64,000 bases of DNA from Candidatus Pacearchaeota archaeon (GCA_016866995.1 VGKQ01000002.1:221-64220); one strand, 5' to 3'; positions 7,029 through 59,846 are shown, counted from the first letter of the stretch. Notes: generated by a model from the letters alone, not told the origin. Made by a program: numbers and translations.

Positions 7029-7310
7029 ATGCGCAAAATTCACAAGATAAAAAAGATGAAAAAGATTCTGCTTGTAGCTTCTTTAAAATTCAAAAAAGAA
7101 TTTAAGAGGCAGTTGAGGCTGGCAATTGCAGCTGCAATCGGCTTTCTCATTGCTTTTGCCTGGAAAGATTTTATCTTCAAGCTTGTGCAAGATTCTGTCG
7201 CAGATATCTCAACTTTTACAGAAATTCACTTTATTGGAATTGCCTCTTCATTAATTATAACAATTTTAGGAGTAATTCTAATTATAATAAGCTCAAGATT
7301 TCTCGAATAG
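7029..7310 (+). CDS. small membrane protein
   Basis: 93 aa with two predicted TM stretches (AAAIGFLIAFAW, IGIASSLIITILGVILIII). Confidence 0.5.
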   Translation: MRKIHKIKKMKKILLVASLKFKKEFKRQLRLAIAAAIGFLIAFAWKDFIFKLVQDSVADISTFTEIHFIGIASSLIITILGVILIIISSRFLE

Positions 7311-7486
7311 CAGCAAGTTTTAGTTTATTTTTACTAATTTTACACAATTTAACCGAACTTTCCCCCTAAATTAAAAATTAGTTCTATTAATATGTGAGCG
7401 CGAAGCGCGAACGCGCTCGACATTAAGTTTTAATCTTTGTTTTTTATCACAATAATGCTTAAATAGATGAGAAAAGTTAGAAAAAC

Positions 7487-7918
7487 ATGCCAGAAAGAAC
7501 AGCATTAGATCAAATAAAAGGGATATTAGAAGGAAATATCTATGAATTAAAAGAGGGCTTAGATAGATACTTAGATAGATATCTTCTTGTTGGAGTAAAC
7601 CCTAAATTTTCCCGAGATTCACATCCACTTTATCCTATTCAAGTTGTTAATTTAACTTGTGTTTCACGAGTTAATCATGGTTTTGATGATTCAGCAACTT
7701 GTCCTTTGCAAGTAGCTAATTTTGTAATTCTAGAATCACTAATTCCGATTTCCCCTCGCGATTTGACTCCTGATGAAGCTCAAGTTCTAGCTTTTTATAA
7801 GATGAGGCAAAAAGAATCTCAATTAGCTCAAACAGCCCCAACACAAAACCCAACACAAAAAGAAGAGGGAGTTTATCATGACATGATTGATGATGCAGGA
7901 GATTACAAGCACGATTAA
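7487..7918 (+). CDS. hypothetical protein
   Basis: 143-aa ORF. TATA-like gcttaaatag about 30 nt upstream. Confidence 0.5.
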   Translation: MPERTALDQIKGILEGNIYELKEGLDRYLDRYLLVGVNPKFSRDSHPLYPIQVVNLTCVSRVNHGFDDSATCPLQVANFVILESLIPISPRDLTPDEAQVLAFYKMRQKESQLAQTAPTQNPTQKEEGVYHDMIDDAGDYKHD

Positions 7919-20145: not shown

Positions 20146-21477
20146 ATGAAGAATTTTGAATTTGGAACAGGAATAATTGACAAAGTAATCAAAGAGATTA
20201 ATAAAGCTAAGAAGTATATAAGAATTGTAGTCTTTCAGATTCATAATAAAGAAATCATTAATAAACTGAAGGAAAAAGTAAAGATGGGTGTTTCTATTGA
20301 ATTAATCACTTTGCCTTATGAGAGCATTCAAGAAAATGTAAGAGCAGAAGTTACAAAAGAATTAAAAGAATTAGAGAAGGCTGGTGGAAAAATCTATTTA
20401 TGTAATTGGAATTTGGGAGATACGAGCCATACAAAAACTGTTCCAGGCCCTTGGCATAATTTACATTCAAAGTTTATGGTAACTGACAAATCTGCAATAG
20501 TTTTATCTGCGAACCTTATTGGAAATGATGATATTGATGCAATATTAATAAATGATGATAGAGCAGAGATTAAAGACTTCAATAAGAAATTTGAATCTGT
20601 AATGGAGGATTATATGCAAGATAAAATATTTAAAAAAATAAAAGAAAGTATAGAAAGTGAAGAGGATTACAGTGAGATAATTACTCCTCCGAAACATTTG
20701 TCTAGAAATCAAAAATCAATACTTCATTATCCTATAAAATTATGCCCAAATATGGAGGATATAGAAGAAAAACTATATGTTTTTCCATTGGATTGTAAAG
20801 GGAGAGATTTTGTTAAGAAGATTATTGAGGACTCTTCACAATTTGTTTACATATCCACAGAAAGATTTACTGATAAAGAATTATTTTATTTCTTACAGAA
20901 AGAGGGACTAAAAAATAAAGAAATAAAAATATTGACTAAATTTCAAAGCCAAGATTATCAATATGAGATAATCCAATTTGCGAAAAATTGCCTGACTACT
21001 GGAATAGAATTAAAAGATAATAAAATGGTGCATGCAAAACTGATAGTCACTGACAAATTAGTTGCTCTTGGTTCTATTAACTTAAATCAGATGAATTTAG
21101 GATTTGAACCTAAGAAAGGATTTTGGAGATCAAATACAGAAGTTATGCTAATTTGTAAAGATAAAGAAATTATTGATAAAGCAAAAAATCTATTTTTAGG
21201 AATTTTTAGTAATTCTGACAATGTTATTAAAAATCTTGTAAAAAAAGAGGTTGATAATTTTAAGAAAATTGCAAAAGAGGTTTTAAATATGCCTTTATAT
21301 AATAGTGGAGGATATTTAGCAGAAAAATTTTTGAGAGAGGAGATAGTAAACAGAAAGAAATATTTAGAAATTATTAAAGAAGCAGCAAAATTAGCGAAGG
21401 CAAAAAATCTTAAAAAAATAAAAGAAGAATTAATAAAAGAGGTTGAAGATAACTCAGAAAAACAAACAAAATTATGA
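20146..21477 (+). CDS. phospholipase D superfamily protein with two HKD motifs (nuclease/phosphodiesterase)
   Basis: HSKFMVTDKSAIVLSANL and HAKLIVTDKLVALGSINL. Confidence 0.85.
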   Translation: MKNFEFGTGIIDKVIKEINKAKKYIRIVVFQIHNKEIINKLKEKVKMGVSIELITLPYESIQENVRAEVTKELKELEKAGGKIYLCNWNLGDTSHTKTVPGPWHNLHSKFMVTDKSAIVLSANLIGNDDIDAILINDDRAEIKDFNKKFESVMEDYMQDKIFKKIKESIESEEDYSEIITPPKHLSRNQKSILHYPIKLCPNMEDIEEKLYVFPLDCKGRDFVKKIIEDSSQFVYISTERFTDKELFYFLQKEGLKNKEIKILTKFQSQDYQYEIIQFAKNCLTTGIELKDNKMVHAKLIVTDKLVALGSINLNQMNLGFEPKKGFWRSNTEVMLICKDKEIIDKAKNLFLGIFSNSDNVIKNLVKKEVDNFKKIAKEVLNMPLYNSGGYLAEKFLREEIVNRKKYLEIIKEAAKLAKAKNLKKIKEELIKEVEDNSEKQTKL

Positions 21478-22338
21478 AAATTCTTTTATATTTTTATCTG
21501 GAAATTCCTGCTTTAATCTTTCTTCAGTCATCTTAATATATTCTTTATTGATTTCAAATCCTAAAAAATTTCTATTTAATTTTTTAGCGGCAATTGCTGT
21601 CGTTCCTCCGCCCATAAAAGGATCGAGCACAACATCTCCCTCGTTAGTTAACCAATCTATAAAAAATTCTGGTAGTTGTGGATGAAATGGGGCGGGATGT
21701 TTTAATCCTCTTAAAGCACTTCCAGTATCAAATCTAAAGACAGTTGTGGGTTTTGCACCTTTTGGATGAGGTTTGCTGCTTCCTCTTTGGGATAATTTTG
21801 TTTCTCCATTAGGCAAGATTATGTCATTTCCATGAACTTTATTTTTAAATCGCTTTAAAGAGACTTCCTTGTATGGAACTCTAATTCTATCTGTAAATGT
21901 TTTAAATTTCTTGGAATCTTTTACAAAATGAAAAATATATTCTATTCTATCATTTAATCTCTTATCTCCTGTCATGGGGAGAGCTGATTTTTTAAACCAT
22001 ATATACCTATCAAATAGTTTTAGTCCTGTTTCTTTTGTTATTCTATAAACTAATTCAAAAACATAAGTGCTTCTCTCTCCATTATTTGATTTATCATTAA
22101 TATTTAAGATAAAGCTTCCTGAATCTTTTAGAAATCTCTTAGCTTCTTCAAATAATGTTAAAAACCACTCTACATATTGTTCAGGAGTTAAAATTTTTAC
22201 TTCATTTCCGTAACTTACTGTATCTGCATAAGGCGGGGAGGTAACAATCAAATCTACTGAATTATCTGGCAATTCCTTTGCTAATTTCATTGTATCTCCT
22301 AAATGAGTTTTATTTAACTCAAATTTTCCTATTTTCAT
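21472..22338 (-). CDS. beta-class N6-adenine or N4-cytosine DNA methyltransferase
   Basis: Motif IV LIVTSPPYAD precedes motif I VLDPFMGGGTTAIAA. Confidence 0.9.
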   Translation of the reverse strand: MKIGKFELNKTHLGDTMKLAKELPDNSVDLIVTSPPYADTVSYGNEVKILTPEQYVEWFLTLFEEAKRFLKDSGSFILNINDKSNNGERSTYVFELVYRITKETGLKLFDRYIWFKKSALPMTGDKRLNDRIEYIFHFVKDSKKFKTFTDRIRVPYKEVSLKRFKNKVHGNDIILPNGETKLSQRGSSKPHPKGAKPTTVFRFDTGSALRGLKHPAPFHPQLPEFFIDWLTNEGDVVLDPFMGGGTTAIAAKKLNRNFLGFEINKEYIKMTEERLKQEFPDKNIKEFS

Positions 22339-22801
22339 CTTTTTTCATCTCCTCCTTTAATCTCCTAGATTTTAGTATGCTGTTTAGGTTTTTTAAAAAT
22401 TGTTGTGATGCATCTAATGGTATAAAAATGCTGCCTTTCATTATCCATTTATCTCCTTCTTTTATTTTCTGCTGCAATAATAACGACTTTCCGTAATTAT
22501 TCTCAACTAAATCAATGTAAAATCTTTTCTTGCCAACATCAAAATAGTTGAAATCTAAATGATGATATCTATGATTTGGATAGTATATTCTAGCGCTTCC
22601 TACTTGTTTCATATAAATATTATTCTCAAATAATAAAACTTGAAGATGCTTTTCTACTGCTTTCCTAGAAATCCCTGTTTGCTGTTCTATATCTTGGGTT
22701 GTCAAACCTCGAGGGTGAGCTTTGAGATGAGTATGTATTTTTTCATGAGTTTCACTCTCTCTATTAAATGGCGAACCATTTATCTCTCCCTCTTTTTTCA
22801 T
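22319..22801 (-). CDS. wHTH protein upstream of and overlapping the methyltransferase (controller or specificity-like)
   Basis: GLTTQDIEQQTGISRKAVEKHLQVL. 20-nt overlap with the MTase gene. Confidence 0.6.
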   Translation of the reverse strand: MKKEGEINGSPFNRESETHEKIHTHLKAHPRGLTTQDIEQQTGISRKAVEKHLQVLLFENNIYMKQVGSARIYYPNHRYHHLDFNYFDVGKKRFYIDLVENNYGKSLLLQQKIKEGDKWIMKGSIFIPLDASQQFLKNLNSILKSRRLKEEMKKDENRKI

Positions 22802-22930
22802 GTTTTATCTAGTAAAACATGGTATTTAAACTTGTGTTGTAACTTCCAAGTGCTTAGTACCAAGCAATAGGTTTAAATAGATAAATGCATTTTACAAAAT
22901 AGCTTTTTCAAGTGAAAAAGCAGGTGAAAT

Positions 22931-23092
22931 ATGTATCAATATTTATTAACATTGCCACAAAAATTAATGACTATGTTGTTTAGATATTGGTATGTTGTTT
23001 TGGTTTTGTTAATTTTAGGATTTGGCATTCCACAAATAATATATTATTTGCCTACAATAATTAAATATGGAAAATTTTTTGGATTAATATAA
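22931..23092 (+). CDS. tiny membrane protein (53 aa), first gene of the 4-gene operon
   Basis: MYQYLLTLPQKLMTMLFRYWYVVLVLLILGFGIPQIIYYLPTIIKYGKFFGLI. The stop lies 1 nt before the ATG at 23094. Below the track cutoff. Confidence 0.4.
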   Translation: MYQYLLTLPQKLMTMLFRYWYVVLVLLILGFGIPQIIYYLPTIIKYGKFFGLI

Positions 23093-23093
23093 A

Positions 23094-23381
23094 ATGGGCT
23101 TAGCTGAATTTTTTATTTTTTTAGTAATCTTTGGGATTGTAGGCTATGCTATAAATAAAATCTGGGATTTTAATCCATATGAATACTGGGAAAAGTTTGG
23201 GGTTATAAGTATTATTATCTCGTTAGTTATTGCTTATCTTCCAACAATTTTCAATCCTCAGGATGTTGTTAATAATGTTGATAGGATAATGAATTGGTTT
23301 GTTGCGATTTTGCCCGGCACGATCATAGGAGATTTGGCAGGGCAAATTATCTCAAAAATTACCGGGGGAGGTAGAAGATGA
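23094..23381 (+). CDS. small membrane protein (3 TM)
   Basis: 95 aa. 4-nt overlap with the next gene. Confidence 0.55.
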   Translation: MGLAEFFIFLVIFGIVGYAINKIWDFNPYEYWEKFGVISIIISLVIAYLPTIFNPQDVVNNVDRIMNWFVAILPGTIIGDLAGQIISKITGGGRR

Positions 23382-24673
23382 TATTTATGGGTGCTACATA
23401 CCAGAGCGATTCCCCTTACTTTGAAGATAAATTAATTAAAGCAAGAAATAAACTAAAAGAGTTTCCTACAATAGCAAGCGTGGTCGATAATTTTAATTTG
23501 GCAAATAGAGAGAACCATACAGAGAATATTATATTAAATTTATTGAGTGCAGCAGTTTCAGATGCTTTTTTAGAAAATAAACCAAATGAACGATGTAATC
23601 AAACACTAAAACTAATTGAGCTCTCCTTGAAAGAATTATTGGATAAATTGTCAAGAAGTAAGAAAAATAATCTTATTGTTAAATTAAAATCATTTGGAGA
23701 TAGTCATCGTGATACAATAAATGAAATTGATTTTTTGATAGAATTGAAACAAAATTCTAATGTATCTGACATCGAATATGAAAATGAAACTTTGGGAAAC
23801 CATGATTTCAATGTTTATATTGGTGGAGAAGAATTTAACATAGAACAAACTTGTTTGGGAAGAGGGAAAATACAAAAGATGGTAGAGCGGGCTTTTAATA
23901 TCGCTTCAAAAGAAATTATAGAAAGAATCCCAAAAAGGATATTCCTAAAGATAGATGTAGACACGGATAGAATTTTGAAAGAAAGGGATAATAGTTTTCA
24001 TGAAATAAAAACACTTTTGATGAAAGACTATGATAATTTAGAAAAAATGTTATTGATAGATTTAAATGGTGGTTGTAGAATTGATAATAATCTGGGATCT
24101 TCCAATCAATCTTTATACGAAATAAAAGATTTATATGATGATTATGATGAATTTGGTCAAAGACTTAAAAAATTATTAGATAGCCGTGAAGGCGTTGATT
24201 ACTTAAAGAGTAAGAAAGTTTTTGAATTAACAAAATGTTCTATAACTCATTTCATTATCGGACCAGGCAAATTTGGCAGTGTCAGTATTCACTCACAATG
24301 TATATGGCCTTCAAGAGCAGAATCATTAAGAAAAGGCTCATTAATAAATCAATTAAAGAGAAAGATAAAAGAAAAAATTGAGGGGAGACAATTAGAGGGA
24401 AAGACAAATCCTATTATCGCTGTTAGATTTGAAGATTTTATATTTATGAATTATAGTTCGGAAGATGATGTTTGGTGGGAAGAGAATTTTAACGAGCTAA
24501 AGAACATTATTGAGGGTGTTTTTAGAGATATCAATAACAAAGAGATTTTAGGGGTCTTGTTGTATGAGAACACAATTAAAAAATCAAGATTTGTAAAAAA
24601 TCCAAATATCAAAGTTAGAGAGAATATAATAGATAAAATTGGCTTATTAAAAAATGAATCAACAACAACTTAA
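23378..24673 (+). CDS. uncharacterised 431-aa protein with a weak Pol-beta NTase-like signature
   Basis: KSFGDSHRDTINEIDFLIEL (G[DS]-x-ExD spacing as in hG[GS]x9-13[DE]h[DE]h), followed by HDFNVYIGGEEFNIEQ. The assignment is speculative. Confidence 0.6.
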   Translation: MIFMGATYQSDSPYFEDKLIKARNKLKEFPTIASVVDNFNLANRENHTENIILNLLSAAVSDAFLENKPNERCNQTLKLIELSLKELLDKLSRSKKNNLIVKLKSFGDSHRDTINEIDFLIELKQNSNVSDIEYENETLGNHDFNVYIGGEEFNIEQTCLGRGKIQKMVERAFNIASKEIIERIPKRIFLKIDVDTDRILKERDNSFHEIKTLLMKDYDNLEKMLLIDLNGGCRIDNNLGSSNQSLYEIKDLYDDYDEFGQRLKKLLDSREGVDYLKSKKVFELTKCSITHFIIGPGKFGSVSIHSQCIWPSRAESLRKGSLINQLKRKIKEKIEGRQLEGKTNPIIAVRFEDFIFMNYSSEDDVWWEENFNELKNIIEGVFRDINNKEILGVLLYENTIKKSRFVKNPNIKVRENIIDKIGLLKNESTTT

Positions 24674-25613
24674 AGAAAATGCTGAACAGATTAAGATATG
24701 TAAGAAGTGGCTAGGCACTGCTAAGTCAGATTTTGAGGCTGCAAAAAATCTTTACGAACATGAAAATTATCCTCAATCAGTCTTTAGCTTACAACAATCT
24801 ATTGAAAAAACCATAAAAGCATATGGTATTTTTATGGGTGTAAAGGAAAGTGATTTAAAAAATAAATTTAGACATGATACTTTAAAAATTTATGAGCATC
24901 ATTTAACTGGGTTTTTAGAAAAATCAAAGAGTTTTAGCGAGACACTAAAGGCACATCCTGAACTTAAGAGTATTCCAATGCTAAACGAGTTAGATTATGA
25001 TGATTTAGCAATAGAGATGAGTGATGCAAAAGATGAATTTCAGAACATAAAATCTAGTGCGGAGGATATGACAAAAACTACCCGAAAGATTGAAAGTTGC
25101 ATTAACAAAGCAATTAAGCTTTTCGAAAATGAAAAGATTTCTATTAAAGGATTATCCAAAATTAAACTGTCTGACAGGCAATTTAATGAAATAAAAAGAT
25201 TTATGTTCGAAAACCTTAATGAAATTTCTAAGCTAAAAAAACAAGAACTTCCAGAATTGAAAGAGATCGAGAAATTAACTCCGAGCTACTTTCAAAGGCT
25301 TTTTAGTGAGACCTTTAGCTATTTAATCAGGGCATTGTCGGTTTATAGTGCATTGCTTTACTTGAATCTTATTGTTTATAATAAAGTTTCTTCCACAAGA
25401 TATCCTGAGAACAAAACCCCTCAACAGATATATAACATCAATTCTCCAATTATCAAGAGATTTAGGGATATCCAGAAGATTCATCAAGATTGCTTCTTGA
25501 AAATTGAAGATATTCTTAATGAACAAGAAAAATTAACTAAAAAATATCAAAATGAAACAACCAATCCAACAAACTCACAAGCTCGCCCTCCTACTAAGTC
25601 GGGCTCGCTGTGA
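24654..25613 (+). CDS. long HEPN-domain protein with a large insertion
   Basis: N-terminal WLGTAKSDFEAAKNLYEHENYPQSVFSLQQSIEKTIKAYG, FRHD, and a distal STRYPE. 20-nt overlap with the upstream gene. Confidence 0.6.
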   Translation: MNQQQLKENAEQIKICKKWLGTAKSDFEAAKNLYEHENYPQSVFSLQQSIEKTIKAYGIFMGVKESDLKNKFRHDTLKIYEHHLTGFLEKSKSFSETLKAHPELKSIPMLNELDYDDLAIEMSDAKDEFQNIKSSAEDMTKTTRKIESCINKAIKLFENEKISIKGLSKIKLSDRQFNEIKRFMFENLNEISKLKKQELPELKEIEKLTPSYFQRLFSETFSYLIRALSVYSALLYLNLIVYNKVSSTRYPENKTPQQIYNINSPIIKRFRDIQKIHQDCFLKIEDILNEQEKLTKKYQNETTNPTNSQARPPTKSGSL

Positions 25614-27309: not shown

Positions 27310-27321
27310 TAAATCCTCAAA

Positions 27322-27349
27322 GCTCGCCCTCCTCTAAGTCGGGCTCGTT
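27322..27349 (-). repeat. GC-rich boundary motif (inverted orientation)
   Basis: gctcgccctcctctaagtcgggctcgtt. Confidence 0.75.
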
Positions 27350-27414
27350 GCTAATGATAAAGCTGAGGAGAAAATAAAATCATATACAGAGCTCAGTCGC
27401 CACCCCAATGCTCT

Positions 27415-29275: not shown

Positions 29276-29324
29276 ATCCCAAAGCCCACACCTCAAACTC
29301 AGGCAGAAACATTTAAATACTTAT

Positions 29325-59763: not shown

Positions 59764-59846
59764 GCGCTGGTAGCATAGTGGTTAGTGTGTCTGCCTTCCA
59801 TATTTGAAGCAAGCAGACGACCCGGGTTCGAGTCCCGGCCGGCGCA
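59764..59846 (+). tRNA. tRNA-Gly(TCC) with an 11-nt intron at 37/38
   Basis: Acceptor GCGCTGG/CCGGCGC, anticodon stem TCTGC/GCAGA, loop CTTCCA[tatttgaagca]A, T-arm CCGGG-TTCGAGT-CCCGG. Confidence 0.85.

Follow-up and report, generated by a model that had tools for sequence, protein, structure and literature searches.

Little of the antiviral defence of DPANN archaea has been charted, and the catalogued defence families are mostly bacterial. Among genes embedded in type I restriction-modification (R-M) operons, defence functions are over-represented (bioRxiv 10.1101/2024.01.29.577857; PMC11411939). PrrC is almost exclusive to this embedded position (bioRxiv 10.1101/2024.01.29.577857), TgvAB of Vibrio cholerae is a tested example of type I R-M-embedded defence (PMC11411939), and at least 16 clades of HEPN domains are linked to R-M systems (PMC3710099). 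Here we analyze a 64,000-nucleotide stretch of DNA from Candidatus Pacearchaeota archaeon (GCA_016866995.1, VGKQ01000002.1:221-64220), a DPANN member, hereafter the window (G+C content 28-35%). An initial annotation of its sequence had proposed that four plus-strand genes form a candidate module of two small membrane proteins, a protein resembling Pol-beta-type nucleotidyltransferases (NTases) and a split HEPN protein. The genes are as follows.

22931-23092, plus strand: 53-residue open reading frame (ORF), an orphan with one hydrophobic span
23094-23381, plus strand: gene for a 95-residue small membrane protein (NCBI tag FJZ19_00720, hypothetical protein)
23378-24673, plus strand: gene for the 431-residue protein (NCBI tag FJZ19_00725, hypothetical protein), member of an unannotated archaeal family
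24654-25613, plus strand: gene for the 319-residue protein, a HEPN of the PF05168 type that carries a large helical insert

All four genes were recovered at the coordinates proposed, and the junctions between them consist, in order, of a one-nucleotide gap, a 4-nucleotide ATGA overlap and a 20-nucleotide overlap. The idea of a conserved four-gene module did not hold up, the quartet being seen in none of the related loci. We tentatively read the locus as a composite restriction-linked defence cassette that has the 431-residue protein family as its conserved core, rather than as a dedicated four-gene system.

An archaeal family without described relatives

The 431-residue protein has 18 close homologues, and an exhaustive profile search recovered at least 108 representative clusters (50% identity) at E<=1e-3, with 37 at 1e-30. 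All family members with a named organism are archaeal, and comprise the Pacearchaeota protein of the window, Woesearchaeota proteins (L021, L022), one from Aenigmarchaeota (MCD6477197.1) and one from Halobiforma nitratireducens (WP_006673910.1). Searches of the protein against Pfam, NCBIfam, PADLOC (2.0 models) and PHROGs gave no match, and neither did phmmer against PDB sequences, a profile of 69 family members against the same sequences, or tblastn against phage and plasmid collections. Pfam scans of these 69 members taken singly returned only scattered single matches at E>0.002, including one to HSDR_N_2 at 0.037. The initial annotation had recognised no named family for this protein, and indeed none of the libraries searched gives a described relative.

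The same annotation had assigned the protein an NTase signature, an attractive label that proved wrong and is corrected here, given how poorly the motif is conserved, the secondary structure predicted for it and the lack of matches. The putative motif has F-G-D in place of hG[GS]. In an alignment of the 69 full-length members, whose identity goes down to 16% and from which all conservation figures for the family derive, Gly107 is a glycine in only 7 sequences, and among 16 close homologues two lineages have Glu or Asn at this position. As to the proposed catalytic carboxylates, Glu116 is indeed conserved, whereas Asp118 varies across the family (E, L, D, I, S, T), and both fall within helix 108-125 of the AlphaFold2 model (pLDDT 76.9, pTM 0.68) and therefore not on a strand, unlike in Pol-beta NTases. 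Neither the protein nor any of the 69 relatives matched an NTP_transf_2 or Polbeta profile, compared with scores of 7e-11 and 2e-12 for genuine MNTs of the same window. Foldseek searches of the model against PDB and BFVD also returned no NTase above probability 0.01.

Embedding in type I restriction-modification operons

Twenty-six related loci were fetched and their ORFs called, yielding 12 distinct loci with close homologues of the 431-residue protein (41-76% identity). Type I hsd genes lie next to the homologue in 10 of the 12 (L014, L006/L015, L017, L021, L022, L026, L004, L025, L019, L024), most of the close relatives being positioned between hsdR and hsdS/hsdM; no type I genes were found near the homologue in L001. 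The embedded stretches often also hold DUF3800, Shedu-like SduA_C and Schlafen/AlbA_2 genes.

The flanking genes vary. Downstream of the 431-residue homologues occur hsdS (six loci), a winged helix-turn-helix (wHTH) membrane protein gene (L006, L021, L017), a gene for a 167-residue HExxH-type protein (L026) and, in the window only, the HEPN gene. Upstream neighbours other than the small membrane proteins described below are a ribbon-helix-helix (RHH) protein, a Cys-rich 99-residue protein or a cupin. An RHH-like small protein family, for which no Pfam match was obtained, occurs upstream of the embedded genes in eight type I loci, where it is a possible operon regulator.

L021 2950-3348: RHH-like family
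L017 3098-3475: RHH-like family
L025 998-1390: RHH-like family
L014 3579-3755: RHH-like family
L022 4392-4652: RHH-like family
L026 4774-4947: RHH-like family
L004 1670-2776: RHH-like family, at the N-terminus
L006 4161-4640: RHH-like family

In L026, the gene for the 167-residue HExxH-type protein (7280-7783) lies upstream of hsdS, and its start, MKQQLQNKQIEWKK, nearly duplicates the HsdS N-terminus, MKQQTQINKIEWKE, as seen by comparison with the hsdS starts of L004, L019 and L026. This near repetition suggests that cassettes enter the operons via recombination at the 5' end of hsdS.

Two aberrant copies were also noted. The 404-residue copy in L017 (3472-4686) lacks about 22 residues, among them strand 1 and Asp143 (both part of the predicted core described in the next section), which could reflect inactivation of the gene or a variant of the assembly. 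In P0016 (350 residues, on an ENA contig of 2113 nucleotides), the N-terminal half of a 431-residue homologue is continued by an eIF-5/eIF-2B (PF01873) domain, probably because the gene is disrupted or the assembly chimeric.

Conserved residues and predicted nuclease-like core

Glu156 and Gln338 are invariant in the 69 members, and Asn50, Glu116 (99%), Asp143 (94%) and Asn408 are each kept in 94% of them or more. In the AlphaFold2 model, residues 108-194 form a predicted alpha-beta-beta-beta-alpha-beta core, built in the order helix 108-125, strands 129-134, 144-148 and 151-159, helix 164-182 and strand 189-194.

23699-23959, plus strand: predicted alpha-beta-beta-beta-alpha-beta core, residues 108-194 (AlphaFold2 model)
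23723-23725, plus strand: Glu116, in helix 108-125
23804-23806, plus strand: Asp143, just before strand 144-148
23843-23851, plus strand: Glu156-x-Thr158, in strand 151-159

In the predicted structure, this order is that of the PD-(D/E)xK (restriction-endonuclease-like) nucleases. As in these enzymes, an acidic residue is found in the first helix, an Asp at the start of the second strand and a Glu in the third strand thirteen residues later, and D-x12-E spacing is typical of PD-(D/E)xK enzymes of the Hjc/RecB type. Topology and motif thus suggest a putative PD-(D/E)xK-like nuclease devoid of the canonical lysine, with which the weak structural neighbours, none of them a significant match, are consistent. 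Foldseek against BFVD gave a top match at E=0.029, named 'PD-(D/E)XK nuclease superfamily', with none at E<=0.001, and about 11 of the named matches among the top 50 are PD-(D/E)xK nucleases, restriction enzymes or RecU-like proteins. The neighbours in PDB are five MGME1 entries (best E 0.57), VC1899, N.BspD6I and a splicing endonuclease, all with probabilities <=0.14.

Small membrane proteins

A Kyte-Doolittle scan of all four proteins found both small proteins to be hydrophobic, in agreement with the membrane assignment made initially, and detected no hydrophobic span in the 431- and 319-residue proteins. Scans with Pfam, NCBIfam, PADLOC and PHROGs gave no match for either small protein. The two small proteins differ in their conservation. 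The 95-residue protein shows two clear hydrophobic spans, together with a third that is weaker, and its homologues lie directly upstream of 431-residue homologues, with a 4-nucleotide overlap, in L026 (74% identity, the 431-residue partner being only 54% identical), L021 (71%) and L022 (44%). It is thus a recurrent, translationally coupled upstream partner of the 431-residue gene. The 53-residue protein has a single hydrophobic span at about residues 19-44. Its ORF, conservation of which the four-gene proposal had called for, is not conserved: no homologue was found in any of the 26 related loci, and it forms a singleton cluster, predicted by the JGI and Logan gene callers and with no NCBI source. 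We regard it as a leader ORF specific to this lineage, and its significance as doubtful.

Other membrane proteins occur in comparable positions. In L024 and L025 an unrelated 63-residue protein with two hydrophobic spans is encoded directly upstream of the 431-residue homologue, and the wHTH protein found downstream in L006, L021 and L017 also has two hydrophobic spans.

A HEPN protein with a large insertion

The 319-residue protein matches PF05168 over residues 17-145 with 40.2 bits (curated cut-off 22; E=4.3e-10) and AbiV-type HEPN models weakly, and phmmer aligns residues 20-63 to TM0613 (1o3u). Its AlphaFold2 model, built from five sequences, is all-helical, with an overall pLDDT of 67.7, values above 85 at residues 10-60 and of 50-65 in the middle of the protein. 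The only high-probability Foldseek matches are to HEPN structures, 1ufb (0.93, 62 columns) and 1wol (0.69), both covering the N-terminal helix pair. The family is small, consisting of five homologue clusters that all carry PF05168. Residues Gln47-Gln48-Ser49, Glu51-Lys52, Lys55, His74-Asp75 and Arg249-Tyr250-Pro251 are invariant in the five homologues.

The split of the HEPN domain by a very large insertion, as proposed at the outset, is supported by the Pfam and Foldseek matches together with an in silico deletion series. With residues 100-239 removed, the protein scored 51.2 bits against PF05168, compared with 42.4 bits for its N-terminal part alone, and the deletion extended the match to position 95 of the 117 in the profile, spanning the TRYP segment; the other seven of the eight constructs gave no gain in score. 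Because this deletion both raises and extends the match, the domain appears to be interrupted by about 140 helical residues, located between the invariant His74-Asp75 and Arg249-Tyr-Pro. The C-terminal half of the domain rests on this test (+9 bits) and on the invariant Arg-Tyr-Pro, a phmmer search of the C-terminal part against PDB having returned chance matches only.

24951-25370, plus strand: HEPN insertion of about 140 residues (100-239), predicted all-helical
25398-25406, plus strand: Arg249-Tyr-Pro, conserved C-terminal HEPN motif, invariant in five homologues

One expectation was not borne out. Arg249, the candidate Arg of an Rx4-6H dyad, is invariant, but no His is found within 4-6 residues after it in any homologue, the residues following Arg249-Tyr-Pro being ENKTP, DNKKNP, EGRGL or GKEGEL. 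HEPN proteins of the 1o3u group often have a conserved His elsewhere (PMC3710099), a pattern that His74 of the 319-residue protein fits, with Arg-Tyr-Pro conserved as in that group. HEPN domains are known to carry inserts at this position (PMC3710099), and the present insert is far larger than those. The 319-residue protein is toxin-like, and within the known HEPN family it represents a novel variant.

The 3' end of the HEPN gene also overlaps one copy of a direct repeat of about 31 nucleotides, AAGCTCGCCCTCCT[A]CTAAGTCGGGCTCG, found at 25579-25610 and 27320-27350 with one indel, where none is expected by chance. The overlapping copy encodes an extra C-terminal tail that is not present in a HEPN homologue of 77% identity. 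The repeats bound a 1.74-kb segment holding a 121-residue minus-strand ORF, a gene for a 264-residue NTase-domain protein whose N-terminus looks AbrB-like by eye, and an 87-residue ORF; a partial inverted copy of the repeat occurs at 22711-22726. The repeat-flanked segment may have been inserted, the repeats being duplicated target or attachment sites.

Contexts of the HEPN family and an indirect link to the 431-residue family

Elsewhere, the HEPN homologues occur in varied company. In L010 (5840-6930) the gene follows, with a 4-nucleotide overlap, that of a 54-residue MazE/AbrB-like protein (Pfam E=9e-5), forming a toxin-antitoxin-like pair that adjoins two DNA methylases and a GmrSD gene. 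In L012 one PDDEXK_1 gene and one Cas2-like gene adjoin it. In L008 it lies just upstream of hsdS and is preceded, with the same 20-nucleotide overlap as in the window, by a gene for a 228-residue protein that is not a homologue of the 431-residue protein; the contig ends 31 nucleotides upstream of that gene.

The 228-residue protein is homologous to an extra domain of about 250 residues fused to the C-terminus of the 431-residue region in at least 10 of the 108 family representatives. The extra domain has no Pfam match (fusion proteins of 613-755 residues scanned) and no hydrophobic span. Its profile matches the 228-residue protein at E=3.9e-15 (51.8 bits) and also fragment P0018, in which the last 177 residues of a 431-residue homologue (74% identical to the window protein) are fused in frame to an extra domain that is 62% identical to the 228-residue protein. 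One fusion and two adjacencies thus connect the extra domain both with the 431-residue family and with the insertion-bearing HEPN. On this thin evidence, it becomes more likely that the 431-residue and HEPN genes stand side by side in the window for a functional reason. The HEPN gene has been added downstream of the 431-residue gene in this sublineage; elsewhere it follows a domain that other members of the family carry fused to their C-terminus.

Putative promoter and packing of the locus

The TATA-like box reported upstream of the genes proved to be a perfect archaeal TATA consensus.

22872-22879, plus strand: archaeal TATA box TTTAAATA, an exact TTTAWATA, 52 nucleotides upstream of the first ATG
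22823-22830, minus strand: second copy of TTTAAATA, facing the divergent wHTH gene
22922-22927, plus strand: AGGTGA, Shine-Dalgarno-like, preceding the ATG of the 53-residue ORF
23367-23372, plus strand: GGAGGT, preceding the ATG of the 431-residue gene

Beyond this pair the next TTTAWATA match on either strand is at 29312, and the window as a whole is not enriched in the motif (40 found versus 31.5 expected). The box at 22872-22879 is likely the single promoter of all four genes. The start codons of the 431- and 319-residue genes are consistent with those of their homologues. ATGA-type overlaps are found at almost all junctions of the homologous operons, including those between 431-residue genes and hsdS, and are preceded by purine-rich Shine-Dalgarno-like sites. 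Since such overlaps occur nearly everywhere, the tight coupling is generic to these compact genomes and operons and no sign of a dedicated module.

Possible explanations of the locus

In the composite cassette that we favor, the 431-residue protein would be a nuclease-like effector or sensor, would bind or cleave nucleic acid as a metal-dependent enzyme, and would act as a second line of defence beside R-M systems. The 95-residue protein would tether or gate it at the membrane, the HEPN protein would provide an added RNA-targeting or toxic arm, and the proteins might cooperate physically. On a bolder reading, the family would represent a novel archaeal immune module, with a lysine-less restriction-endonuclease-like core, N- and C-terminal domains of its own, a type I R-M-embedded position and interchangeable partners, namely small membrane proteins, the wHTH membrane protein, the extra domain and the insertion-bearing HEPN toxin. 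We consider this possible but somewhat unlikely.

Several observations weigh against the cassette as pictured here. Unlike in PD-(D/E)xK enzymes such as Hjc, RecB, Cas4 and MGME1, the position of the Lys is taken by Thr, Gly or Ser: residue 158 is Thr in 72% of the 69 members, Gly in 19%, Ser in others and Lys in one sequence. Because the canonical Lys is replaced in nearly all members, the protein may be a non-nuclease or inactive. The full-length model finds no PDB structure at E<=0.001 with Foldseek (best E 0.24), the probabilities of all PD-(D/E)xK Foldseek matches are at most about 0.2, and hhalign of the core with HsdR N-terminal nuclease domains gave no match (probability 0.1). As to gene context, no homologue of hsdR, hsdM or hsdS was found in the window, adjacency of the 431-residue and HEPN genes is seen in this genome only, and in 5 of the 12 loci there is no membrane neighbour on either side of the 431-residue homologue.

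The strongest rival takes the 431-residue protein as a sensor, regulator or other enzyme that controls swappable effectors, its Glu-Asp-Glu site serving some other chemistry or the binding of a ligand or metal. The effectors, encoded beside it, would be the small membrane proteins, the wHTH membrane protein, the HEPN protein or the fused extra domain, an arrangement like that of defence systems in which exchangeable effectors accompany a conserved core. Missing the catalytic Lys and any significant nuclease match, a constant protein around which the partners vary would suit such a role, as would invariant Asn50, Gln338 and Asn408, which lie far from the core in sequence, and the fusions in several clades to a domain of about 250 residues without catalytic motifs. 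However, the order of secondary structures and the D-x12-E spacing fit a nuclease core well, no signalling-enzyme fold was detected, and hsdS follows directly in six loci, four of which (L014, L004, L019 and L022) lack a candidate effector downstream. We regard this alternative as rather unlikely.

It is unlikely, in our estimation, that the four genes are unrelated cassettes packed without cooperation into a variable defence and toxin-antitoxin island, with the HEPN acting as a toxin on its own and with small membrane proteins that are independent or spurious. Such a chance assembly would account for a quartet that is unique to this genome, for the orphan 53-residue ORF, for HEPN homologues that occur without the 431-residue family in L010 (with the MazE-like gene) and L012, and for a 431-residue gene with many different neighbours and generic ATGA overlaps. 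It does not account for the 95-/431-residue pair, which recurs in four loci whose 431-residue proteins span 54-100% identity, or for the extra-domain fusion, through which the 431-residue family is tied to the gene that comes before the HEPN homologue of L008.

A role for the family as an accessory of type I R-M itself, for instance as regulator or assembly factor, would be in line with its consistent position between hsdR and hsdS, often after the RHH-type putative regulator, but is very improbable in view of the window copy and L001, which have no type I genes nearby, of the members in a haloarchaeon and an Aenigmarchaeote, and of the unrelated defence genes in the embedded stretches. Least credible of all is the integrated abortive-infection system of a Pol-beta NTase, a split HEPN and two membrane effectors, for although its HEPN and membrane-protein calls were correct and one promoter region is common to the genes, the NTase motif is unconserved, lies in a helix and finds no NTase match by any method, and neither the quartet nor the 53-residue ORF is conserved. 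Apart from the HEPN fold, this proposal is refuted by the criteria that it had set itself.

Neighbourhood of the cassette in the window

The surroundings are rich in defence and toxin-antitoxin genes, in line with the initial annotation. The cassette adjoins a PLD-family nuclease gene, an N6/N4 DNA methylase gene and the divergent wHTH gene, and Fic, PD-(D/E)xK, Nudix and several MNT genes lie near it. At 20146-22801, immediately upstream, the gene for the PLD-family nuclease (443 residues) is convergent with that of the N6/N4 DNA methylase (288 residues), followed by the wHTH protein; this segment looks like a type II-like R-M unit. Farther away, at 59764-59846, ARAGORN predicts a tRNA with a four-base anticodon (tcca), to which it assigns no identity; this archaeal tRNA may contain an intron or be unusual in some other way.

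Significance and comparison with described systems

Given at least 108 clusters, no relatives in the libraries and repeated embedding in type I R-M operons, the 431-residue family is therefore a concrete candidate for a novel archaeal defence gene. Glu116, Asp143 and Glu156 are ready targets for mutagenesis. What was taken for a module is a lineage-specific assembly of cassettes, which bears on how such loci are mined.

Linkage of accessory defence genes to R-M systems is a known pattern; the 431-residue family is without a described relative in the libraries searched. RexAB, Kiwa and Zorya pair a soluble component with small membrane proteins. The present locus resembles them in that a soluble protein is translationally coupled to a small membrane protein in a defence context, with no homology to their components in PADLOC. 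Relative to the PD-(D/E)xK nucleases that its predicted core resembles, the 431-residue protein adds large N-terminal helical and C-terminal alpha/beta regions with invariant residues of their own (Asn50, Gln338, Asn408).

The 319-residue protein shares the Pfam match and the N-terminal helix pair with PF05168 HEPNs (TM0613/1o3u, TT1696/1ufb, ST0689/1wol), the toxins of MNT-HEPN pairs. In contrast to the PF05168 toxins, it is about 2.5 times longer, has no His of an Rx4-6H dyad, and is preceded by a gene that is not an MNT.

Among R-M-embedded defence genes, the anticodon nucleases PrrC/RloC, TgvAB and the 'guilt-by-embedding' candidates offer the closest parallel. Unlike these, the 431-residue family contains no ABC-ATPase, GmrSD or other known domain and is found in DPANN hosts, and its copy in the window stands outside a type I operon, beside the PLD-nuclease and N6/N4-methylase pair. 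Like them, most close homologues of the 431-residue protein, together with one HEPN homologue, are positioned between hsdR and hsdS/hsdM.

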